The translations under genes were made by a program, and so were the position numbers. Shown here piece after piece: positions 5,317-21,525 of a stretch of DNA of 64,000 bases (the first letter of the stretch is position 1; each line of letters begins with the position of its first letter). The notes below the pieces were generated by a model. The model was not told where the DNA came from and searched no databases. It saw nothing but the letters and a program-made list of their open reading frames with translations. Where the stretch lies: positions 356 through 64,355 of the forward strand of contig CAMWJV010000005.1 in NCBI GenBank assembly GCA_947174665.1, given 5' to 3'. Source of the DNA: an uncultured Lachnospiraceae bacterium (GTDB lineage Bacteria > Bacillota > Clostridia > Lachnospirales > Lachnospiraceae).

Positions 5317-6338
5317 TACCTGCTCCTATAATACATGCTGTAATATGCGGAAAGCAATTTTTCGTCAGCATCAGCCAAAACCACCGCGGTGACTTTTATG
5401 TCCTGACGACCAAGCTGTTCAATCAAACGCTCAAAAGCCTTATCGTTCCTGCATCCGGCTTTCAGTACAAGGAGCACCTTCTCACATTCCCGTATCCTGT
5501 CCAATTCTTCCGGATGCTCTGCCGGATTCCTGCAGCTTATGATCTTTCTCGCTTTATCTTCCGGTATTGCAAATTCTTCATCTTGAAAATCCTCATCCAC
5601 AAATACCTTTGCGATATTTACGGATTCTTTCAGAACATATTTCCAATTCGGCGCAAATTCAGGCATAAAGGGTGCCCCAAGACAGGTAATATGATACCTC
5701 TTCTCAATGGTAGAGGGAATATAAACCGCAGTATCAACTATCAGCATAATAAGGATCCCAAGCGTTGATATTCCAAGTCCGAGACCTCCTCCCAGGAAAC
5801 ATGCATTTCCGATCCTGAGTTTTGAACTGTCCCTGACATCGTCTCCCGCTTTTGCTATTTCGATGGTTTGTATTTCTTTCCTGATATCCGCAAATTTCGG
5901 AACAATCTCCTCCATAATGGAAGCCAGCCTCAACGAGAGCTCCGGAGAATGGGTGTTGCAGCGCACATAGAGATACCGGACATCCGAATCAATTGTGGCT
6001 GTGATATATGAATAGATCTCATCCCCGGAAAGTTCTCCGGCCATTTTTTCATGGACATAATCCATAAAAAAATCTGTATGAATCACCTCTCCCCAGGTAA
6101 AGTAATTGTAATAATCATATTCTTGTCCCTGGGCATCTTCTGCAAAGTCAATGTAAAAAACCGTCTCAGTCTGATAGGTTCTTCCCCCTCTTGCCACTGT
6201 TCTGGCATAAAAATGACATGCTCCAACCAGAACAATGCCCGCCAGCATAGCAACGGGAATGATCCAGATCTTCCTTAAAAATCTGAGCCATAACAACTTA
6301 TAGTCCACAGGCTCTCTGCTATATTCGCATTCCCACAT
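5316..6338 (-). CDS. Wzz/CpsC-like polysaccharide chain-length or co-polymerase protein
   Basis: N-terminal 'DYKLLWLRFLRKIW'+TM, second TM with Gly-rich GGGLGLG, 'IEKRYHITCLG' and a degenerate kinase-like tail. Confidence 0.65.
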   Translation of the reverse strand: MWECEYSREPVDYKLLWLRFLRKIWIIPVAMLAGIVLVGACHFYARTVARGGRTYQTETVFYIDFAEDAQGQEYDYYNYFTWGEVIHTDFFMDYVHEKMAGELSGDEIYSYITATIDSDVRYLYVRCNTHSPELSLRLASIMEEIVPKFADIRKEIQTIEIAKAGDDVRDSSKLRIGNACFLGGGLGLGISTLGILIMLIVDTAVYIPSTIEKRYHITCLGAPFMPEFAPNWKYVLKESVNIAKVFVDEDFQDEEFAIPEDKARKIISCRNPAEHPEELDRIRECEKVLLVLKAGCRNDKAFERLIEQLGRQDIKVTAVVLADADEKLLSAYYSMYYRSR

Positions 6339-6567
6339 TATCAGCGGCCTCCCATCAGTTCTTCAAACAATTCATAGCTCTTTCTCAATTCTCATATTCC
6401 TTTACGGATTACCATGGAAAAGGTGGTAATGATAGTATCCGTCCTGAAAACAGATCCGTCCGTATATGTGATGGTTTTATCTTCAGGATTGCATGTCCCC
6501 GCTGTGTACCGTATAGCTTTCGGTTCAGACAGCTTAAAAGTACACTATCATATATTATCTGTAACGG

Positions 6568-7419
6568 TCAACCATTTTCTTTCAGCAGCTTCACATACCT
6601 GCCAAGCGCATCCTGCCAGGGCGGCAGCTTTTCAAATCCGTTCTCCGTCAGCTTATCCTTATTCATACGGCTGTTTGCCGGGCGCTTTGCTTTAGCCCCA
6701 TACTCCTCCGTAGTCACAGGCACCACGTTTACGGAGACGCCGGCTTCCCTGAAAATAGCGCAGGCAAAATCATACCAGGAGCAGTTTCCCTCGTTGGTGG
6801 CATGATATACACCGTACTTTTCCGTAAGAACCATATCCACCAGCAGCCTCGCCAGGTCATAGGTGTATGTGGGCGAACCAAACTGGTCATTCACCACTCG
6901 TATGGTATCGTGGCTCTCCGCCAGCTTCAGCATGGTTTTGACAAAGTTCTTTCCGTTGATACCAAACACCCATGCAATGCGCACGATAAAGTACTTGTCC
7001 AGCAGTTCCTGAACCGCCAGTTCACCCTCGTACTTTGTTCGTCCGTACACGCTCTGAGGCTCTCTCTCATCATCCGGCTCCCATGGACGCTCGCCCAGTC
7101 CGCTGAACACATAATCGGTACTGATGTATATCATCTTAATGTCCAGTTCCCTGCACACCGCGGCAATATTCCGGGGACCCTCCGCATTGACTCTGCGGCA
7201 GAGATCCTCGTTTTCCTCCGCAGCATCCACCGCTGTGTACGCGGCACAGTGAATCACCGCGTCAGGTGACGCATCTTTGATCACCCTCTCCACACATGCA
7301 GCATCGGTGACATCCATCTCATCGATGTCCACCCCCACTGCCTGAATACCTCGTTTTGTCAGTTCATTCACCACATCATAGCCCAACTGTCCCTTTACGC
7401 CAGTCACAAAAACTTTCAT
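6568..7419 (-). CDS. rfbD: dTDP-4-dehydrorhamnose reductase
   Basis: VTGVKGQLG, HCAAYTAVD, ISTDYVF, YGRTKYEGE, DQFGSPT. Confidence 0.96.
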   Translation of the reverse strand: MKVFVTGVKGQLGYDVVNELTKRGIQAVGVDIDEMDVTDAACVERVIKDASPDAVIHCAAYTAVDAAEENEDLCRRVNAEGPRNIAAVCRELDIKMIYISTDYVFSGLGERPWEPDDEREPQSVYGRTKYEGELAVQELLDKYFIVRIAWVFGINGKNFVKTMLKLAESHDTIRVVNDQFGSPTYTYDLARLLVDMVLTEKYGVYHATNEGNCSWYDFACAIFREAGVSVNVVPVTTEEYGAKAKRPANSRMNKDKLTENGFEKLPPWQDALGRYVKLLKENG

Positions 7420-11242: not shown

Positions 11243-14200
11243 TCACTCGAAGTCCTCGTCTCCCTCGAAATCCGCTACATCGGAATCAAATTCCTCGTCG
11301 TCAAAGCTATCGTCGTCAGCGTTGACTAATTCGCCGCTCTCATCATCGAACTCCTGCGACTGATAGCCCATCCTGCCGAGAGAGTCGTTGTCATAATCGT
11401 CATACTTACGGTCTCCCTCCATCTCATAGCGGTAATCGGTATCGCCATAGTCAATTGTCTCCATGATCTCGACCTCGGTCTGGTCATCACGAAGCACTCT
11501 TACATCCAGTCCAAGAGCCTGGAGCTCCTTCAGCAAAACCTTGAAGGACTCAGGAATACCGGGCTCGGGAATATTATCCCCCTTGATGATCGCCTCGTAA
11601 GTCTTTACACGGCCGACTACATCATCGGACTTTACTGTCAGAATCTCCTGCAGTGTATAGGATGCGCCGTATGCTTCCAGTGCCCAAACCTCCATCTCAC
11701 CAAAACGCTGTCCGCCAAACTGTGCTTTTCCGCCCAGAGGCTGCTGGGTAACCAGGGAATAAGGGCCGGTAGAACGGGCATGAATCTTGTCATCCACCAG
11801 ATGATGCAGCTTTAAGTAGTGCATGTGTCCGATGGTGACAGGACTGTCAAAGTACTCACCGGTACGTCCATCGCGCAGATGAACCTTGCCGTCCCGGGAG
11901 ATAGTCACACCCTTCCATATACTTCTCTGCTCTTTGTTGTCATCCAGATACTGCATTACCTCAGGAAGCAGTTCCTCTCCGTGCAGACTCTCAAAAGTCT
12001 CGCCGGACCACTCTCTGCCGTCCGCTGTAGTATCCTTTCCTTCCGCCTTCCATTCCTTTGCCTCCGCGGCGTTAAAGGGAAGGTTCACATAATCGTTTGC
12101 CAGTCCCAGAGTGTCCATAATATCGGTCTCATTTGCGCCGTCAAACACAGGAGTGGAAACGTTAAACCCAAGCGCCTTAGCCGCCAGGGAAAGGTGAATC
12201 TCCAGTACCTGTCCAATGTTCATACGCGAAGGCACGCCCAGAGGGTTGAGCACAATATCCAGAGGACGTCCGTTTGGCAGATAGGGCATATCCTCCACCG
12301 GCAGCACACGGGATACCACACCCTTGTTGCCGTGACGTCCTGCCATCTTGTCACCTACGGAAATCTTTCTCTTCTGCGCAATATAGATACGGACAGCCAT
12401 GTTTACGCCGGGAGAAAGCTCATCACAGTTCTCTCTTGTAAACACCTTGGCATCCACTACAATACCATACTCGCCGTGAGGCACCTTCAGGGAAGTATCA
12501 CGAACCTCTCTGGCCTTCTCACCGAAGATAGCTCTCAGCAGCCTCTCCTCGGCAGTCAGCTCGGTCTCTCCCTTGGGCGTCACCTTGCCCACCAGAATAT
12601 CTCCGGCACGCACCTCGGCACCGATTCGAATGATGCCTCTGTCATCCAGATCCTTCAGAGCGTCATCACCCACGCCGGGAACGTCTCTGGTAATCTCCTC
12701 GGGCCCCAGCTTGGTGTCACGGGCTTCCGCCTCGTATTCCTCAATGTGAACGGAAGTATATACATCCTCCTGGACCAGTCTCTCACTCAACAGGACAGCA
12801 TCCTCATAGTTATAGCCTTCCCAGGTCATAAAGCCGATCAGCGGGTTCTTTCCCAGAGCAAGTTCACCCTTGGCAGTAGAGGGGCCGTCTGCAATAACCT
12901 GACCCTCCGCCACATGATCCCCCTTGAAGACAATGGGTTTCTGATTATAGCAGTTCGACTGGTTGGAACGTGAAAACTTGGTCAGCTTGAACTCAGCTTT
13001 CTCCCCATCGTCATAGGTTATGCGAATCAGGTTGGAGGACACATAATCTACCGTACCTGCCTTCTTTGCCAGAATACACATACCGGAGTCCTCTGCCGTC
13101 TTCGGCTCCATGCCGGTGCCCACCACAGGCGCTTCCGTAGTCAAAAGAGGCACCGCCTGACGCTGCATGTTTGAACCCATCAGCGCACGGTTTGCGTCAT
13201 CATTCTGCAGGAACGGAATCAATGCGGTAGCGACGGAGAATACCATTCTGGGAGACACGTCCATATAGTCAAACATGGAACGGGGATACTCGGAAGTCTC
13301 CTCCCTGTAACGTCCTGACACGGTATTGCGGACAAAATGTCCTTCCGCGTCCAGAGCCTCACTTGCCTGTGCCACATGGTAATTGTCCTCTTCGTCCGCA
13401 GTCATATATACCACTTCATCCGTAACCACCGGATTCTGCGGATTTGATTTGTCAATCTTTCTGTAAGGTGCCTCCACAAATCCATACTCGTTGATACGGG
13501 CATAGCTTGCGAGAGAGTTGATCAGGCCGATGTTGGGACCTTCGGGGGTCTCAATAGGGCACATTCTTCCGTAATGGGAATAATGTACGTCTCGAACCTC
13601 AAATCCTGCACGGTCTCTGGACAGACCGCCGGGGCCCAGCGCAGACAGACGCCTCTTGTGCGTAATCTCCGCAAGAGGGTTGTTCTGATCCATAAACTGG
13701 GACAGCTGGGAGGAACCGAAAAACTCCTTCACTGCAGCTGTAACAGGCTTAATATTGATCAGCGACTGGGGTGAAACATCATCCGTATCATGAGTAGTCA
13801 TGCGCTCACGGACCACTCTCTCCATTCTGGACAGACCGATGCGGTACTGGTTCTGCAGTAATTCGCCCACCGCACGGATACGCCTGTTGCCCAGATGGTC
13901 AATGTCATCGTCATTACCCAGACCGTACTCCAAATGTATGTTATAATTGATGGATGCAATAATGTCTTCCTTCGTAATATGCTTGGGAACGAGCTCATGT
14001 ACATTCTTCTTGATCGCTTCGGCAAGCTTCTCGGGGTCTGAGGCAAACTCCTCCAGAATCTGCTTCAAAACAGGGTAATATACCTTCTCATGGATGCCGA
14101 AATCCTTTGGATTGCAGTCCACAAAAGCAGTAATATCAACCATCATATTGGAAAGAACCTTGACATTTCTCTCCTCCGTCTGAATATAGACAAAGGGAAC

Positions 14201-15178
14201 AGCCGCGTTCTGAATGGTATCGGCCAGTTCCGCGCTCACCTTATCACCTGCAGAGGCAAGGACCTCGCCTGTGGAAGGATCCACTACATCCGCCGCCAGC
14301 ACCTGATGCCTGATCCTGTTCCTGAAAGCCAGCTTTTTATTGAATTTATATCTTCCGACCTTGGCCAGATCATATCTGCGGGGGTCAAAGAACATTGCGT
14401 TGATCAGACTCTCCGCGCTCTCTACACTCAAAGGCTCTCCGGGACGGATTTTTTTGTATAACTCTAACAGACCCTCCTGATAATTCTCAGCAGTGTCTTT
14501 TGCAAAACTCGCTTCAATCTTCGGCTCATCGCCAAACACTTCACGAATTTCGTCATTGGTACCGATTCCCAGAGCACGAACCAGCACAGTTACGGGAACC
14601 TTACGGGTTCTGTCCACGCGCACATAAAACACGTCATTGGAATCCGTCTCATACTCCAGCCATGCACCGCGGTTAGGAATAACCGTACAGGAGAACAACC
14701 TCTTGCCAAGCTTGTCATGACTGATCGCATAGTAAATACCGGGAGAACGTACCAGCTGGCTTACAATAACACGCTCAGCACCGTTGATGACGAAAGTTCC
14801 CGTCTCTGTCATCAGCGGAAGATCACCCATGAAAATCCTGTGCTCACTGATTTCTTCCTTCTCTTTGTTGTACAGGCGAACCGTGACCGTCAAAGGCGCT
14901 GCATAGGTCGCATCCCTCTCTTTACATTCTTCAATAGAATACTTCACATCATCCCTGCAGAGTTCGAAATCCACAAACTCCAGACTCAGGGAGCCGCTGT
15001 AATCAGCGATAGGAGAAATATCGTCGAAGACCTCACGCAATCCTTCGTCAAGGAACCACTGATAGGAGTCCTTCTGGACTTCGATCAGGTTCGGCATCTC
15101 CAGAACCTCTTTCTGTCTCGCATAACTCATACGCATAACCCTGGAACCGGCTACCGGACGTATTCTGTTTTTTTCCAT
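11243..15178 (-). CDS. rpoB: RNA polymerase beta subunit
   Basis: [39 protein letters not shown]; start 15178 preferred over 15184 from RBS spacing. Confidence 0.99.
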
Positions 15179-15247
15179 TGACATTTCACCCCGTTCTTTC
15201 TTTTATGCCGCCAAAAAGGCATAGCACAGCACAATAGTGCATCGTCT

Positions 15248-15276
15248 ATAATATCACAAATCGGTCAAGGGGTCAA
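15248..15276 (-). promoter_or_regulatory. sigmaA promoter for rpoBC
   Basis: TTGACC-17 bp-TATTAT with a TG extended -10. Confidence 0.7.
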
Positions 15277-15429
15277 GGACAGATTTTCAGGTTAATGCTT
15301 AACAGGGCAAATTTTCGGATTGTTATAAGCAGAAATTCTTGAGTTTTCACAGTTTTATTGTTACTGTCCAGCAGGGATTGGCTCAGAAAAAATAGAAGCT
15401 AATGTATCTAATAGATTTTGTCCACGTTT

Positions 15430-15800
15430 TTTGCAGTAGCAAGCAGGATACGTATAGCGCAATAGTCAACTGCTCCCTGCCAGTTGTACAGACCGTAGTG
15501 GTCTTTAAATTGACCTTCCCACCGGAAACATAAGCCACTCCCTCTGCCGCATCCGACAGCATGACATGTTCCGCTACACCCAGCCAGCTGCCCTTATTCC
15601 CCGGCTGTTCCCCTTGTTTCCTGCTGTTTTTTTACGGTTATTTGGCACCTGCTCAAACCCATTGCTGCTGGAGGGCTTGGAGAAGTTGGAGGAATCCTTT
15701 GCGATCTGTGATTTTAAGCGCAGTATCTCCTTGTCTTTTCTGATGCCAATCCCGACAGGGGAACGGCTGATTTTGTCATAGCTTTCTTCCACAGTCTCTT
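15430..15800 (-). pseudogene. IS66-family transposase N-terminal relic (DUF6444-like), frameshifted/deleted
   Basis: RLKSQIAKDSSNFSKPSSSNG matches the IS66 N-terminal KxSxNSSKPPSSDG motif; a shifted frame continues GEQPGNKG (GGQPGHKG-like); no DDE domain; boundaries approximate. Confidence 0.7.
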
Positions 15801-15862
15801 TTTATATATAAGACGCAAGTAAATTCAGCACCAATGCCTACCCTCTTTTCTCAATAAGAATA

Positions 15863-17302
15863 TTATATATTTTTAGACCATGCCCAACTGTCGAGTCTCC
15901 TTTGTCCATAAAATACTTGTTTTTCTTGAAAAAAATGAACACGGTTTTGAAACATTTGATTATCCTGGCCACTTAATTGAAACATCAAATCAATTATTGA
16001 TGTTTTCATATCTGAACAATATGGACATTTGCTAATAAAACTTCCGTTTGTGAAGTAGGCTTCGCCACGGCAACCACCTCCGCAGTAATACTTTACCGGA
16101 CACTTTTGGCAATCTGCTGAAAATGAATTCACATTAAGTTTGCGGAGTTTTTTCAGTAAGGGAGATGTTTTCCATAATGAATCAAGATTATCATATCTTA
16201 TATTCCCCAACTTAAGTTCTGAAATCATTGTATTGTAACATGGATAGACCGAGCCATCATAGTCAATCACCAAAGAAGCAGAACCAACACCGCAATATTG
16301 AAATTTTAAGTTCATAAGAAGGATTGCTCCTACATTCGCATAATCAGACCGTTCAACATAATACATATGCCTTGACGATTTCTTCGATATTTTTGAAAGT
16401 GTATTGTAAAATTCTATAAGATTCACTCGCTGCAATTGACTATCTTTGGCTCTGCTCAAAATATTAAGCGGATTAATTGCCACCTGCGCAACATTCAAAT
16501 CTACTGCTAAATCAATAAATTCTTCTAATTCTGATAAGTTGTCCTTATGAATTGTAATTGATAATTTTGTTATTACCCCGTGCTCTAATAGCCGCCTAAT
16601 TTTTTTAATTGTTGGATCGAAAGTGTTTTTTCCACGAATTAGCTCATGTGTTGATTCACGAGCTCCGTCAAGCGAAACAAGAAGTTCTGCCTTGCACTTT
16701 GATAATGCACTCATATACTCTTCTTTTATCAGCAATGCATTCGTGTTGACAAAAGGTTCTCCATTATTATCCGCAATATATTGGATTAACTCCATTATAT
16801 CCTCCCTTATAAACGGCTCACCCCCGGATAACAGAACCCTACGATCATAATGCTTGCTATCTGCCCAAGACATTACTAAACCAATGATCCGCTTTAATTC
16901 GGCAGTATTAAGTTCTTGACTGGCATTCTGCCCATTGTTTGCATCTGCATAACAATGGGAGCATTTTAGATTACATCGACGAGTCACGTTAATTACTGGA
17001 TTAGGTGGATTATTATCTATATCTATTGGGTTATAGTTTTCATCTTGTTGAATCGAAAACAAAGAAGCTGAATCAAATATCAAATATATTGTTTCAATCG
17101 TTTCTTTAGTTTCTTTATCCGAATACTTAAAATCATTAATCAATATTGTTTGTAATTCATCAAAAGATAAATCGTTAAGAAAAAAATTTACAATTGGCTT
17201 TAGAGACTTGTCACCAACAATCCAGAATGGCTTATCACCAAAAATACACAATATCTTATCGTCTTTTTCAAAGAATGTGGGCTCATAAAGAATGTGATTC
17301 AT
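15863..17302 (-). CDS. Radical SAM/SPASM peptide maturase with N-terminal RRE (PqqD-like) region
   Basis: CNLKCSHC (CxxxCxxC), SGGEP, SLDG; SPASM CGVG...GSVYPC...CQKC..KYYCGGGC...CPYC; ~85-aa beta3/alpha3-like N-terminus; start MNHILYEP at 17302 behind AAAGGCGG. Confidence 0.9.
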   Translation of the reverse strand: MNHILYEPTFFEKDDKILCIFGDKPFWIVGDKSLKPIVNFFLNDLSFDELQTILINDFKYSDKETKETIETIYLIFDSASLFSIQQDENYNPIDIDNNPPNPVINVTRRCNLKCSHCYADANNGQNASQELNTAELKRIIGLVMSWADSKHYDRRVLLSGGEPFIREDIMELIQYIADNNGEPFVNTNALLIKEEYMSALSKCKAELLVSLDGARESTHELIRGKNTFDPTIKKIRRLLEHGVITKLSITIHKDNLSELEEFIDLAVDLNVAQVAINPLNILSRAKDSQLQRVNLIEFYNTLSKISKKSSRHMYYVERSDYANVGAILLMNLKFQYCGVGSASLVIDYDGSVYPCYNTMISELKLGNIRYDNLDSLWKTSPLLKKLRKLNVNSFSADCQKCPVKYYCGGGCRGEAYFTNGSFISKCPYCSDMKTSIIDLMFQLSGQDNQMFQNRVHFFQEKQVFYGQRRLDSWAWSKNI

Positions 17303-17422
17303 AACTATAGTTCCGCCTTTCTGCGAAAGGCACCAATTAGGGAATGAAACCCGCAATCAATAGCATTCCGCTTAATGTTTTTCTTTGTTATATTCCTTTT
17401 CTGTTTCATTATTTTATCAATT

Positions 17423-18481
17423 TCACCGAACATAACGTACAAAGAAGTTGCAGAGACAAATCATAGTTTTATACATATCTTTCATTGTCTTCAGCGCATC
17501 ATGAACATACCACCCATCATTAAGCTTAAACCCCAAAGTTGTAATATAGTCTAAGAAAGGTATTGAATAATTACTGTTACTTCCAAGCCATAGGCTGTAA
17601 CAATCATGCTTTTTCCTGACTATTATGGATAACCTTTTTTCATGGTACCTATTTATTATCGCATCTATAAGTATTGAAGAATGACCTGTCAATGTAAATT
17701 TATCATTATCAATGCAACGGATCATTCCATCACCTAATGCTTCTTCCAAAAAATCCTTTTTAATTGACGGTTCACATTCAATGTCATCATAAGTAAAAGG
17801 ATACCCTCCCCAATCGACCGGATTGATATACCTTTTTTTTAACATCATATAAGTTGACGAATACTTTTCCAATGTTTTACTTTGAAATAAGCCTCGAAAA
17901 TTCATATCGGCAGAATACACAGCACCACTTCGATACTTTTGTCCATATTCTTTCAAAAAGTCAATAAATTCACCACTATATTCAGCCCAAAACGGATTCG
18001 AAACCGAAATAGAATCTAATAAAGCTTGTTCTAATTCACCGAACGTTTTACAATGATGCATAATTCTTTTAAGCGATTGATTCCAACTCCATTTCACTGT
18101 TTTATGTTCTTTTGCCATGTCCGGCGACATACCTGCAAGATGATAGAAGGAAACTTTTATATCGTTAGGCCGAAAACTTATTGTGTAAGGTATTTCAGCT
18201 GTTTTGTATATTACCTCACTTTCATATAATGCAAAATCTCGTACTGCCCTGTCCGTTACAAAATATGACCGTTCTGAACCAGTAAGGAAATTTGCGTATA
18301 AACATCCAATTATCTCATTATGAATATACTGTGGAGAATATCCAAGTGATACACCAATGTTGTTGATGTCCTCGGCAGAAATAAACCGTCCATGCTGCAC
18401 AGCCCATTTTAGTAGTTCATTATATAACATATGCCGTTTTGTATTAACATTTTGAAATAAATTCAGACCGACAGAATACAT
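17423..18481 (-). CDS. Hypothetical protein of the rSAM cluster (possibly two winged-helix repeats)
   Basis: 352-aa ORF with GGAGG RBS; no catalytic motif recognised; two wing-like segments (SYFVTDRA, KFTLTGHS). Confidence 0.75.
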   Translation of the reverse strand: MYSVGLNLFQNVNTKRHMLYNELLKWAVQHGRFISAEDINNIGVSLGYSPQYIHNEIIGCLYANFLTGSERSYFVTDRAVRDFALYESEVIYKTAEIPYTISFRPNDIKVSFYHLAGMSPDMAKEHKTVKWSWNQSLKRIMHHCKTFGELEQALLDSISVSNPFWAEYSGEFIDFLKEYGQKYRSGAVYSADMNFRGLFQSKTLEKYSSTYMMLKKRYINPVDWGGYPFTYDDIECEPSIKKDFLEEALGDGMIRCIDNDKFTLTGHSSILIDAIINRYHEKRLSIIVRKKHDCYSLWLGSNSNYSIPFLDYITTLGFKLNDGWYVHDALKTMKDMYKTMICLCNFFVRYVR

Positions 18482-18517
18482 ATTTCCTCCAAATTACCAC
18501 ATAAAATTATATGTAAA

Positions 18518-19153
18518 TTATTTCTTTTGAGCAACAAGACAATAGATGTCGGAGTTTATATCAATAGGTTCTATTATTCGAAAACCATACTCCTCCAACT
18601 TGTGACACAAGAACGTGCAACTGTATAAATGATATGTTACATCATATTTCGCCCCTCCCCAATGCTCGCAAATCGTCAGTTTGCACACATCATTTGCAGA
18701 TAATGATGGCTGTTTGTTTTCTACCATAAAAAGAAGACCATTGCGCCTTAACGATTTTGAAACATTATCTATAACACAATCTAATCTGCAACTCTCTATC
18801 ACAGATAACACAAAGCTTATTATTGCCATATCAAATAAACTTTCAAATTGCATCTGTTGTGTAATATCAGACTCCAAAACCTCAACAAAAGGATAGTTAA
18901 TTAACTTGCTTTTTGCTACAGATAACATAGCGACTGACTGATCAATTCCCAGGATTCTTTGCACTCCAATACTTGCAGATAATAACAGCCAATACCCATT
19001 ACCACAACCAAACTCAATAATACTTTCAACTTTATTTTGCTCAATAATGTTTGTCAAATGCTGTGCAATATCCTTATTTTCTGTGTTCTCTGCGGAATAA
19101 TAAACACTATCATATTCTTGTGCACACAAGTTGAAAAATTCTTTGCTATTCAC
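18518..19153 (-). CDS. Class I SAM-dependent methyltransferase
   Basis: IIEFGCGNG motif I, GIDQSVAML, FD..I.SFVL, LRRNG. Confidence 0.9.
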   Translation of the reverse strand: MNSKEFFNLCAQEYDSVYYSAENTENKDIAQHLTNIIEQNKVESIIEFGCGNGYWLLLSASIGVQRILGIDQSVAMLSVAKSKLINYPFVEVLESDITQQMQFESLFDMAIISFVLSVIESCRLDCVIDNVSKSLRRNGLLFMVENKQPSLSANDVCKLTICEHWGGAKYDVTYHLYSCTFLCHKLEEYGFRIIEPIDINSDIYCLVAQKK

Positions 19154-19192
19154 TGCTTTACCTCTACAACATTGTATTTATCAGCTACAAAA

Positions 19193-20635
19193 TTAGGTTT
19201 TTTGCAATAATAAGGTTTTAAAATGCCGTAAAAACATTGACAATGCAACCATCTTTATATTTTGATAGCCTAAAAAATTAATACTTTCCAAATCTTGAGT
19301 TGCAATAAACCCTTTGTTCAAACCATATACTGATTGAAGCAAAAAAAACGCATGAGGAGAAACCACACTAATGTCGTGTTCTATTTCCATAAATGACATG
19401 AGACTTGAACTCAAACTGTGAAAACCAATTTCGTTTGCAAAATCCTCTAACAAGCGGAAATCAATCGATGTTTCTTGATGATCACCCATAACCCTTGAAA
19501 TTTGAGGAATATTATCCGACTCGCTGTATTCTGAAACAAAAGCAATACCACCTGAAGATAACAGTTCCCAAAGCCGAGTAATAAGCTCAAATGCCCCAAT
19601 ATTAATATAATCACCCTCTAAGTAATTCATAGAAGTTGCTTTCGACCGAATAACTTCATTTGAACATTGTTTCAAAGTAATTGATGGCAAATCCGCGATA
19701 ACTTCATTACAGATTATCAAATCATATCTCTTTAACATAGTTGTTGGGGAATTCAAAATGTTATTATGTATATATTGCACTGGAATTCCATTATGCACCG
19801 TTCCGATTTTATTTCTCTGTGCAGCAAGCATAGATGCTGAAATATCACATATCGTATAATCACATATTCTATGAGACGGCGCAGTATCCAAAATACTCAA
19901 CGCAACATCTCCCAAACCAGCACCAATTTCAAGTATTGAAAGACCTATATTCTGATTTACTTCGCTTTCCATTTTATTATAGAGAATTTTAAATAAACAT
20001 TCCCCATATGACTTATTGTGCAAAATACTGGTTCTATTTCTTAACATATATGAAATAGTAGTCTCTATATCAGTAAATTGTCTTTCCACATTATCTTCGG
20101 ACAAATTTCGATAATAACTATCGTTATCAGTTTTACTCACAGGATTGTGAGAAGCCAAGCTAAATGTGTATCCCCCGAAAAAGTTATCAATATTTCTATT
20201 TCCTAATTTATCTGATAGCAACTTAATAATTTGATTTTCTGAAGAGATGCAAAAGTTCATGAACTCATAAACTTTTTCTTTTGGAATTTCACAGCAGTCC
20301 AGAATCTCACATATTGAAATGTTTCCATTACATAGAGATAATATAAAAGACAAATCCGCACTTACTTCAGTTTTAATAATATCATCATTCTTACCAAAAT
20401 ATACTAAACAATTCTCATTCCATATGGCATAAGGGGTCACAATAGGATAAAAATTTTGCAATTCATAAATGTCTTTTGCATAAAATCCCTCATGCAAGAA
20501 AAAAAGCCTTTCATCATGAGAAAATTCTCCTGCTTTATATCTATCTCCAAAAGCAGCGGGACAAGAGTATGAAACACCTGTCAATACATTTGTAATAATC
20601 ATATTATTATTATCTATGTCATAAATTGCATTCAT
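19193..20635 (-). CDS. SAM-dependent methyltransferase (MidA/NDUFAF7-like motif) with N-terminal RRE-like region
   Basis: ILEIGAGLG motif I, CDIS, LIICNEVIADLP; N-terminal ILSLCNGNISICEI resembles the PqqD/RRE helix signature. Confidence 0.75.
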   Translation of the reverse strand: MNAIYDIDNNNMIITNVLTGVSYSCPAAFGDRYKAGEFSHDERLFFLHEGFYAKDIYELQNFYPIVTPYAIWNENCLVYFGKNDDIIKTEVSADLSFILSLCNGNISICEILDCCEIPKEKVYEFMNFCISSENQIIKLLSDKLGNRNIDNFFGGYTFSLASHNPVSKTDNDSYYRNLSEDNVERQFTDIETTISYMLRNRTSILHNKSYGECLFKILYNKMESEVNQNIGLSILEIGAGLGDVALSILDTAPSHRICDYTICDISASMLAAQRNKIGTVHNGIPVQYIHNNILNSPTTMLKRYDLIICNEVIADLPSITLKQCSNEVIRSKATSMNYLEGDYINIGAFELITRLWELLSSGGIAFVSEYSESDNIPQISRVMGDHQETSIDFRLLEDFANEIGFHSLSSSLMSFMEIEHDISVVSPHAFFLLQSVYGLNKGFIATQDLESINFLGYQNIKMVALSMFLRHFKTLLLQKT

Positions 20636-20821
20636 ATTTACACTCTATCTTCCTTACGCTTTTAAGCCATCAACCTCTATTCGCCTATTAGATACTTATA
20701 TATAAAAAGCATTTCTCTCAAAAAGTTATGAATCAACAATATCATACTTTCAGATATGGTACTGGCACAGCAGTTTCTTAGCTTTATACATTTGATATGC
20801 TTCCGATAAAATCAATAACAG

Positions 20822-20847
20822 TATAGGGGGATATTAGTCCCCCTATA
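20822..20847 (-). terminator. Stem-loop after the precursor gene (leaky terminator or mRNA stabiliser)
   Basis: Perfect 10-bp inverted repeat TATAGGGGGA/TCCCCCTATA with 6-nt loop; only an interrupted U-tract on the minus strand. Confidence 0.75.
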
Positions 20848-20900
20848 TAACTTAAACATTATAATTCTTCATCCAATAAACGAACCTGAATCAACCTTAT

Positions 20901-21068
20901 TTATCCACGTAATGGTATTTCCTCTGGTTCTGGCTCAACCTTTCCATTCGGGTAACGTGCCACAAATAATTCCTTAAGAGAATTCGTCGCCCGAGGCATG
21001 GCATAAACAAAAATGTGATTACTGGACTGAACACCTTCCATTGTTAATAAATTTTCGGTCTTATCCAT
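20901..21068 (-). CDS. Unannotated 55-aa peptide, candidate RiPP precursor: MDKTENLLTMEGVQSSNHIFVYAMPRATNSLKELFVARYPNGKVEPEPEEIPLRG
   Basis: Manual translation; strong RBS AAAGGAGGG just upstream of ATG 21068; TAA at 20901-20903; first gene of the AT-rich rSAM/methyltransferase cluster; followed by a hairpin. Confidence 0.8.
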   Translation of the reverse strand: MDKTENLLTMEGVQSSNHIFVYAMPRATNSLKELFVARYPNGKVEPEPEEIPLRG

Positions 21069-21147
21069 ATGAATTCCCTCCTTTATAATCTCATGATTTT
21101 TCCTATCTTAAGTCAATAGAATAGCCCTTGTCGTCTAGTCAAAACCA

Positions 21148-21525
21148 TTATTTCAATGTAATCTTTGCGCCAACTTCCTCAAGCTTCTTCTTAAGCTCTT
21201 CAGCCTCTTCCTTAGAAGCGCCTTCCTTGACAACCTTAGGAGCTCCGTCTACAAGATCCTTAGCTTCCTTCAGGCCAAGGCCGGTTACCTCACGAACCAC
21301 CTTGATAACCTTAACCTTCTCTGCGCCAACCTCAGTCAACTCAACATCGAACTCGGTCTTCTCTTCTGCCTCTGCGCTTGCTGCAGGGCCTGCCGCTGCA
21401 ACCACAACGCCTGCTGATGCAGATACGCCGAACTCCTCCTCACAAGCCTTTACCAGGTCATTCAACTCTAATACGGTCAACTCTTTGATAGCATCAATCA
21501 GTTCCTGAGCTGTTAATTTTGCCAT
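21148..21525 (-). CDS. rplL: 50S ribosomal protein L7/L12
   Basis: [25 protein letters not shown]. Confidence 0.99.

Follow-up and report, generated by a model that had tools for sequence, protein, structure and literature searches.

We analyzed a 64,000-nucleotide stretch of DNA from an uncultured Lachnospiraceae bacterium (GenBank assembly GCA_947174665.1, contig CAMWJV010000005.1, positions 356 to 64,355), referred to below as the window. A small gene cluster in it, located between rplL and rpoB, encodes a 55-amino-acid (aa) peptide, two methyltransferases, a protein without a known family and a radical S-adenosylmethionine (SAM) enzyme (rSAM) with a SPASM domain. We consider it likely that the cluster is a genuine system for a peptide that is ribosomally synthesized and then modified post-translationally (RiPP), that it belongs to an rSAM family for which we found no description, and that the enzyme acts on a short Arg-Tyr-Pro-Asn-Gly block of the peptide. 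The family is named RYPNG peptides here. The original prediction, made from the letters of the window alone, had proposed a RiPP-type cluster, and this proposal was supported by the linkage of precursor and maturase genes described below.

A conserved precursor peptide next to one clade of radical SAM enzymes

The precursor gene (20901-21068, minus strand) was identified from its open reading frame (ORF), its ribosome-binding site (RBS) and its conservation in a family. The predicted residues of the 55-aa product were exact, and AGGAGG is placed 7 nt before the ATG as a strong RBS. The peptide contains no Cys, no Trp and no YG, as had also been stated. It had no match in Pfam or NCBIfam, and a profile search yielded a family of 18 distinct precursor sequences.

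Alignment of the 18 precursors showed that E33, R38, Y39, P40 and N41 are invariant, and that G42 and K43 are kept in at least 90%, giving the motif (A/P)RYPNG(K). In the window precursor, A-R-Y-P-N-G-K occupies residues 37-43 and is followed by a 12-residue variable tail. The tail varies freely in the family, with 4-16 residues after the Tyr, and the ORFs of nine lineages range from 36 to 61 aa, the Parvimonas form being 37 aa. Near the N-terminus a strand of (R/K)-I-F-V is conserved, which reads HIFV in the window. The original prediction had offered HIFVY or ARYPN as the reaction site. The second of these fell within the conserved RYPN(G) block, but HIFVY was rejected as a reaction site: neither its His nor the second Tyr is constant, and the segment corresponds to the leader strand RIFV of the family. 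The Leu-Arg-Gly at the C-terminus of the window peptide is unlikely to be a methylation target, because it is not conserved in the family.

The conserved peptide was found beside homologues of the enzyme. Genomic context was read for nine distinct rSAM lineages. Of 14 loci of close homologues, 13 have a peptide with RYPN[GD] adjoining the rSAM gene; the contig of the 14th ends early. All 13 complete loci thus carry the precursor (the window, L002, L004, L005/L006/L087/L102-104, L088, L089, L090 and L105/106). As a control, 99 other loci (1.17 Mb), of which 80 were centred on distant rSAM/SPASM genes, contained RYPN[GD] only once, as a stop-bounded chance match.

A stem-loop was detected 3' of the precursor gene by terminator scan and minimum free energy folding (20822-20847, minus strand). 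Its 10-bp stem has 5 G-C pairs and is followed by merely a weak T-tract. Judged by this structure, it is likely a partial terminator or attenuator dividing the precursor from the enzyme genes. The order expected from the sequence, a hairpin followed by four co-oriented AT-rich genes, was confirmed; all four enzyme and orphan genes 3' of the precursor are intact and in the same orientation.

The radical SAM/SPASM enzyme

The RRE-radical SAM/SPASM peptide maturase, where RRE stands for RiPP recognition element, is encoded at 15863-17302 on the minus strand (479 aa) and was assigned by Pfam and by a family profile. It matched Radical_SAM (PF04055, 1.3e-23) and SPASM (PF13186, 4.8e-11). In 17 family sequences, the CxxxCxxC motif (C110/C114/C117) and seven SPASM cysteines (C337, C355, C398, C401, C407, C411 and C429) are invariant, so that the enzyme has the motifs of a radical SAM/SPASM maturase. 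The start most likely lies at the ATG at 17302. The TTG at 17356, given as the start in the original prediction, is probably too far upstream, because all 16 aligned homologues begin at the 17302 ATG.

The family profile aligned continuously to residues 30-434 of CteB (E-value 5e-36), and it also aligned to SuiB and TigE. These alignments extend into the N-terminal domains of all three enzymes, and the profile alignment thereby indicates an RRE-like N-terminus for the window enzyme. Weaker values were obtained with SkfB (2e-22) and ChlB (8e-15). Profile searches against PDB sequences with the N-terminus of either the rSAM or the large methyltransferase alone were not significant, no relation between the two N-termini was detected by hhalign (probability 4%), and Pfam PqqD itself had no match in the cluster enzymes.

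When tested against NCBIfam, the enzyme fell in no curated family. No cut-off was reached: scores were at most 156 against cut-offs of 265-850, with NirJ2, WgkB, StsB, MftC, ScmE/F, PapB, DynA, AlbA, PqqE, HxsB and the SCIFF maturase among the models. The best score was for NirJ2 (156 bits, cut-off 500), and others were for WgkB (153/650), StsB (146/625), MftC (TIGR03962, 133/265), PqqE (TIGR02109, 99/381) and HxsB (98/370). About 17 close homologues with 41-68% identity were collected. A search of genome contigs was dominated by the generic CNLxCxHCY pattern and returned only rSAMs of 25-31% identity, with no close relatives.

Two methyltransferases, one with a predicted RRE fold

The large class I SAM methyltransferase (19193-20635, minus strand, 480 aa) was assigned by Pfam and by its predicted fold. 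It matched Pfam Methyltransf_12/25/28. An RRE-like domain spans about residues 63-140, and the methyltransferase domain starts at about residue 220. When the first 165 residues were modelled, two beta-3/alpha-3 units were obtained. The second unit (63-140) has the order beta-beta-beta-alpha-alpha-alpha with a predicted local distance difference test score (pLDDT) of about 90. It was compared with 48,161 PDB representatives, and the N-terminus of TigE gave a Z of 8.0 over 82 residues at 2.6 Å. Other Z values were 7.9 for LynD, 7.2 for TbtB, 7.1 for the PbtF RRE, 6.7 for TbiB1, 6.5 for MccB and PqqD, 6.4 for a lasso B1 protein and 5.7 for CteB, and the weak Foldseek matches fell in the same RRE set. 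In the model, the second N-terminal unit is thus an RRE fold. Both N-termini had been proposed to be RRE-like, and the proposal agreed with the predicted fold for the methyltransferase and with the profile alignment for the rSAM. Residues 1-60 of the large methyltransferase were also predicted as beta-3/alpha-3 at a pLDDT of 53-72, and may form another RRE-like unit, degenerate and in tandem with the confident one.

PF02636, the family of the MidA/NDUFAF7 type, was matched in 13 of 14 members of the large methyltransferase family. The window protein scored 28.5 bits (cut-off 23.3), with the match covering only profile positions 16-108 of 249. PDB 4f3n (COG1565) was matched with an E-value of 5e-4. 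After the SAM-binding strands the protein has an N-E-x-x-x-D motif, which we take to resemble that of MidA. No other fusion of a PF02636-like enzyme with an RRE is known to us.

The small class I SAM methyltransferase (18518-19153, minus strand, 211 aa) was assigned by Pfam (Methyltransf_25/11/31/23) and by homology. Its homology to the small methyltransferases of the Parvimonas cluster (28% identity, E-value 3e-23) and of the L089 cluster (31% identity, 2e-28) extends over the full length.

The orphan protein

The 352-aa orphan protein (17423-18481, minus strand) had no Pfam or NCBIfam match. Among 5.8 billion proteins, 15 homologues were found, and all those whose context was read are located in RYPNG-type clusters. 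The AlphaFold2 model had a pLDDT of 94.6. Residues 13-85 form a winged helix, the sole part that matched the PDB (Z about 10). Foldseek with the full-length model against the PDB, a structure atlas and a language-model atlas gave nothing beyond the winged helix, the C-terminal 260 residues not having been searched alone. The invariant residues include E56, E96, W131, N134, a W-G-G turn, D251 and R255, and no Cys/His/Ser set typical of a protease was found among the invariant residues. Predicted complexes of the orphan protein with the precursor scored 0.19, 0.75 and 0.02, which is evidence neither way.

Homologous clusters in other genomes

The gene content around precursor and rSAM differed among lineages. 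The metagenomic cluster L002/L003 contains two ATP-binding cassette (ABC) genes, both methyltransferases and the orphan protein, and that of Clostridium akagii (L004) contains the large methyltransferase, two ABC genes and the orphan protein, with two TldD/PmbA genes upstream. The Parvimonas clusters (L005/6, L087, L102-104) contain two ABC genes and only the small methyltransferase. The Parvimonas cluster is located between recG and pyrH, and the index of the assembly collection lists its precursor in 76 blocks. In an oral metagenome (L088), precursor and rSAM are accompanied by a paired ABC exporter. Among three further metagenomic lineages, L089 has a major facilitator superfamily (MFS) transporter and an acetyltransferase, L090 has precursor and rSAM without an exporter, and L105/106 is located behind agrB and an AgrD-like gene. 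Paired ABC exporters were seen in L002, L004, L005/6, L088, L102-104 and L105.

Compared by gene content, precursor and rSAM form the core of the system. They are usually joined by the ABC pair and the small methyltransferase, with the RRE-methyltransferase and the orphan protein as frequent accessories. In the original prediction, the gene set had not been recognized as a described class. No description of it was found, but the methyltransferases and the orphan protein turned out to be accessory rather than universal.

Several loci had features of their own. The clusters of L089 and L090 adjoin transposase or resolvase genes. In L089 (10767-16846), the MFS transporter stands in place of the ABC pair and is joined by a GNAT acetyltransferase, and Resolvase and Transposase_mut genes flank the cluster; from these genes, the cluster is evidently carried on a mobile element. 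In L105 (1664-2423), agrB (PF04647) and an AgrD-like gene of 59 aa, whose core contains Cys, are placed directly before the RYPNG cluster, which could mean quorum-sensing control or a mere neighbour. Two TldD/PmbA-family genes in L004 (2662-5412) are divergent and lie just upstream of the Clostridium akagii precursor. TldD and PmbA serve in the maturation of microcin B17, and by analogy the two genes are candidates for leader peptidases. L002 has an insert of about 800 bp (6100-6900) between the small methyltransferase and the orphan gene that is absent from the window and holds a 90-aa ORF resembling an N-terminal fragment of a transposase.

Two more distant rSAM/SPASM homologues (29-34% identity) were found with an upstream small ORF of another conserved family (L115:5409-5696 and L116:2969-3070). 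These ORFs end in ...T-R-E-A-Y-G-x-(M/I)-(K/H)-Y-..., so that the Glu and the basic-Tyr pair are retained. The peptides beside the two rSAMs end in Y-N-S or Y-K-A, in each case after a basic residue and a Glu that is conserved. From these sequences, they look like a sister peptide family.

An AT-rich island inserted between rplL and rpoB

The cluster of the window occupies an island at 15278-21146, between the leader and promoter of rpoB and the stop codon of rplL. The flanking host genes are rplL (21148-21525, minus strand), whose stop is separated from the 55-aa ORF by 79 bp, and rpoB (11243-15184), whose promoter adjoins the island. The island thus splits the rplJL-rpoBC block with about 5.87 kb. 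The cluster has a GC content of 30-38% and the whole island one of about 33%, versus about 50% in both flanks.

We searched the rpoB-proximal DNA in 40 genomes of the same genus and fetched the loci of nine relatives. In the search, 15100-15290 of the window was the sole conserved part. In all nine relatives, the homologous flanks (to 15277 and from about 21147) are 100-370 bp apart and the island is absent. A search for the orphan protein in 40 related genomes was negative, as was one for the rSAM clade in a sample of 400 other genomes from across the phylum. Such a sporadic distribution would be expected of mobile cargo. Neither direct nor inverted terminal repeats were found at the island ends, and a search of Rfam with the island gave no match. 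The best explanation of these comparisons is that the island is horizontally acquired cargo for RiPP biosynthesis.

At the rpoB side, downstream of the rSAM gene, the island ends in a 585-bp non-coding tail (15278-15862, about 43% GC). Searches with the tail gave no coding similarity, no second copy in the genome and no Rfam match; it resembled none of the fetched loci and was not conserved in relatives of the same genus.

A sigma-70-like promoter with an extended -10 is located at 15276-15248. Since it sits in the part conserved among relatives, rpoB probably keeps its own transcription start. At the rplL end, G+C-rich hairpins after rplL were read by eye in two relatives, L092 (1676-1837) and L093 (1680-1778). 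In the window, the terminator scan reported none from the rplL stop to the ATG of the precursor (21069-21147), and the first one comes only after the precursor gene. From this difference, the rplL terminator seems to have been lost to the insertion, which took its place. Because of the 79-bp gap and the lack of a reported terminator-like hairpin in it, transcription probably reads through from the ribosomal-protein operon into the precursor gene. The site shows that foreign cargo can be tolerated within the rplJL-rpoBC block, and the cargo may use the promoter of the ribosomal proteins.

Proposed modification and alternative explanations

In the pathway that we propose, the RRE domains would dock the leader strand of the precursor on the RRE sheet, by analogy with solved RRE-leader complexes. 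The rSAM would then abstract a hydrogen within or next to RYPNG and form a Tyr-centred carbon-carbon cross-link, a step to which we give about even chances. Precedents exist for each of three bonds: aromatic-X-X cyclophanes are made in triceptides, where ChlB acts on YDR (PMC11499958), RrrB links the gamma-carbon of Arg to the ortho position of Tyr, and PqqE links the gamma-carbon of Glu to the ortho position of Tyr (PMC9389541). Our first choice is a bond from the Tyr ring to the C-beta of Asn across Y-P-N, giving a three-residue cyclophane, with Arg-Tyr and Glu-Tyr as the alternatives. It is ranked first because Y-P-N fits a defined motif, with the Y-N-S and Y-K-A ends of the sister peptides as a further consideration, and the choice is a tentative one. 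The two SAM methyltransferases, judging by their presence, would then add methyl groups; the MidA/NDUFAF7-like large enzyme could plausibly methylate the invariant Arg, which we offer only as a lead. The orphan winged-helix protein may be an accessory scaffold or enzyme, and in relatives the pair of ABC half-transporters presumably exports the product.

Several observations weigh against parts of this proposal. N41, R38 and E33 are all invariant, so the sequence cannot pick the partner of the Tyr, and reactions other than cross-linking are compatible with it as well. The rSAM is no nearer to the solved triceptide synthase, ChlB, than to the thioether synthases CteB and SkfB. The PF02636 match of the large methyltransferase is confined to the SAM-binding half, and generic methyltransferase families score as well or higher. 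Since the Parvimonas clusters do without the large methyltransferase and the orphan protein, the core modification does not require these two. Finally, the window cluster lacks an ABC exporter, unlike nearly all of its relatives, and also lacks a leader protease, so the product may not be released here.

The chemistry itself can be read in more than one way. If the rSAM made an aromatic-to-C-beta bond on Tyr-Pro-Asn, the family would be new with known triceptide chemistry. Y-P-N is invariant in 18 of 18 precursors as the aromatic-X2-X3 definition demands, motifs with Tyr are known substrates, such as YDR for ChlB (PMC11499958), and the two sister rSAMs neighbour peptides ending in Y-N-S or Y-K-A. 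Nevertheless, no model of a curated triceptide maturase was reached, HxsB included, the enzyme resembles CteB and SkfB more closely than ChlB, a Pro at X2 would be expected to strain a three-residue ring, and Arg and Glu are as invariant as Asn. We regard triceptide chemistry as possible, with the balance tilted against it. To the same degree we entertain an undescribed cross-link on Arg-Tyr-Pro-Asn-Gly, for example between adjacent Arg and Tyr or as a Glu-Tyr macrocycle in a secreted peptide, combined with Arg methylation by an RRE-guided MidA-type enzyme. The enzyme might instead epimerize, hydroxylate or otherwise edit a residue in the manner of the epipeptide enzymes YydG/EpeE, RYPNG then being a receptor-binding pharmacophore. 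Epimerizing rSAM enzymes of RiPPs are known (PMC13012085), homology yields no chemistry, and an invariant block could be kept for binding to a target. Such editing is nonetheless unlikely, as most of the nearest characterized RRE-rSAM-SPASM enzymes (CteB, SkfB, PqqE and SuiB) form cross-links and an invariant Tyr beside invariant hydrogen-donor residues appears typical of cross-link substrates.

Other alternatives concern the peptide and its fate. That the 55-aa ORF is a chance open frame, with the rSAM acting on another substrate, was considered because AT-rich DNA is commonly dotted with short ORFs and no database family includes the peptide; with a strong RBS, 18 homologues sharing an invariant motif and adjacency in every complete locus versus one chance match in the controls, it is extremely improbable. 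A more substantial doubt is whether the window copy is an incomplete or decaying island that has lost its exporter pair and any protease and releases no product. Two ABC genes that stand between precursor and methyltransferase in L002, the nearest relative, are missing in the window, no exporter of the cluster type was found elsewhere in the genome, which is 83% complete and whose best ABC matches are generic exporters of 30-37% identity, and a functionless tail of 585 bp remains. Yet all five ORFs are intact and as long as in L002, a 97%-identical copy of the orphan protein is present in other samples, L090 likewise has no exporter, and the genome is incomplete while generic exporters are plentiful. 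Decay of the window copy is therefore a possibility that we hold only tentatively. It is rather doubtful, too, that the product is a signalling peptide (pheromone) instead of an antimicrobial. A short conserved core in small genomes of host-associated anaerobes and the L105 cluster directly behind agrB and an AgrD-like gene would suit a pheromone, whereas in the loci read the cluster is not accompanied by a gene for a receptor or regulator, the agr adjacency is seen in one lineage only, and paired ABC exporters fit either role. The reading that we prefer is still a RiPP system in which the rSAM modifies the RYPNG block.

For new peptide chemistry, and for antibiotics such as darobactin, radical-SAM RiPPs are a main source. 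Many uncharacterized rSAM-RiPP families exist, and RYPNG is sharply defined among them, with a very short invariant core and, in the window, an unusual genomic site. An unannotated ORF has become a testable family with a short invariant motif and one cognate rSAM clade. Its minimal form of five genes occurs in Parvimonas, a common human oral anaerobe, and elaborated forms add the RRE-fused methyltransferase and the orphan protein. If the undescribed cross-link and the Arg methylation were true, this would be a new RiPP class with a minimal form common in human oral Parvimonas.

Comparison with known systems

The cluster has the general organization of a RiPP system, with a conserved precursor of leader and core beside the enzyme and an RRE in at least one enzyme. 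Searches of the literature by motif or host (Parvimonas, Clostridium akagii) found no description, and RYPNG or YPNGK appeared only in unrelated animal peptides; RadicalSAM.org and the 2022 rSAM-RiPP atlas in the Journal of the American Chemical Society were outside this search, and the clade may already be an unnamed node in the RadicalSAM.org networks. By sequence comparison, RYPNG appears to be a real rSAM-RiPP family, and novelty at the level of a class is unproven, because Tyr-Pro-Asn fits the triceptide motif and Arg-Tyr and Glu-Tyr links have precedents. Both the new class and the different chemistry of the original prediction hinge on the reaction itself, which is for experiment to show.

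Three known types were ruled out. A sactipeptide or ranthipeptide does not fit, as the precursor has no Cys and no Cys column is conserved among the 18 sequences. For mycofactocin, the Tyr is internal rather than in a C-terminal Val-Tyr, and the MftC model (TIGR03962) scored 133 versus 265. For pyrroloquinoline quinone (PQQ), pqqB/C/D were not in any locus read, TIGR02109 scored 99 versus 381, and relatives carry exporters.

PqqE/PqqA nevertheless shares with RYPNG a short precursor that has an invariant Glu and Tyr, and an rSAM/SPASM enzyme that depends on an RRE (PMC9389541). The RYPNG loci differ in being without pqqB/C/D/F, and the ABC exporters of relatives indicate that the peptide is secreted rather than a cofactor. 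The streptococcal RrrB/RrrA system likewise has a conserved Arg and Tyr near the C-terminus of a precursor of about 40 aa (PMC9389541). The likeness lies in the precursor and in the use of an rSAM enzyme; the ring of RrrA is 16-membered, and a RYPNG ring would be much smaller, since Arg and Tyr are adjacent. The Rgg/SHP regulator of that system is not present in the RYPNG cluster.

Triceptides (XyeB, ChlB, HaaB and HtkB) resemble the RYPNG system in combining rSAM/SPASM with an RRE, and the invariant Y39-P40-N41 conforms to their aromatic-X2-X3 core motif (PMC11499958). The RYPNG peptide differs in having one motif, not repeats, with Pro at X2, and its cluster adds two methyltransferases and the orphan protein. 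The window maturase is in no curated triceptide family; of the four synthases it was compared with ChlB, to which it is only distantly similar. With the protein arginine methyltransferases of the MidA/NDUFAF7 type, the large methyltransferase is connected by its match to part of the PF02636 profile, and an invariant Arg is available in the precursor.

The architecture of the window rSAM, an N-terminal RRE-like domain, CxxxCxxC and a SPASM domain of seven Cys, is the same as in CteB (5wgg), SuiB (5v1q), TigE (8vpo), SkfB (6efn) and PqqE (6c8v). CteB and SkfB install thioethers in Cys-rich precursors, whereas the RYPNG precursor is free of Cys. CteB is the closest solved enzyme, and in both systems a short precursor gene adjoins the gene of the enzyme.

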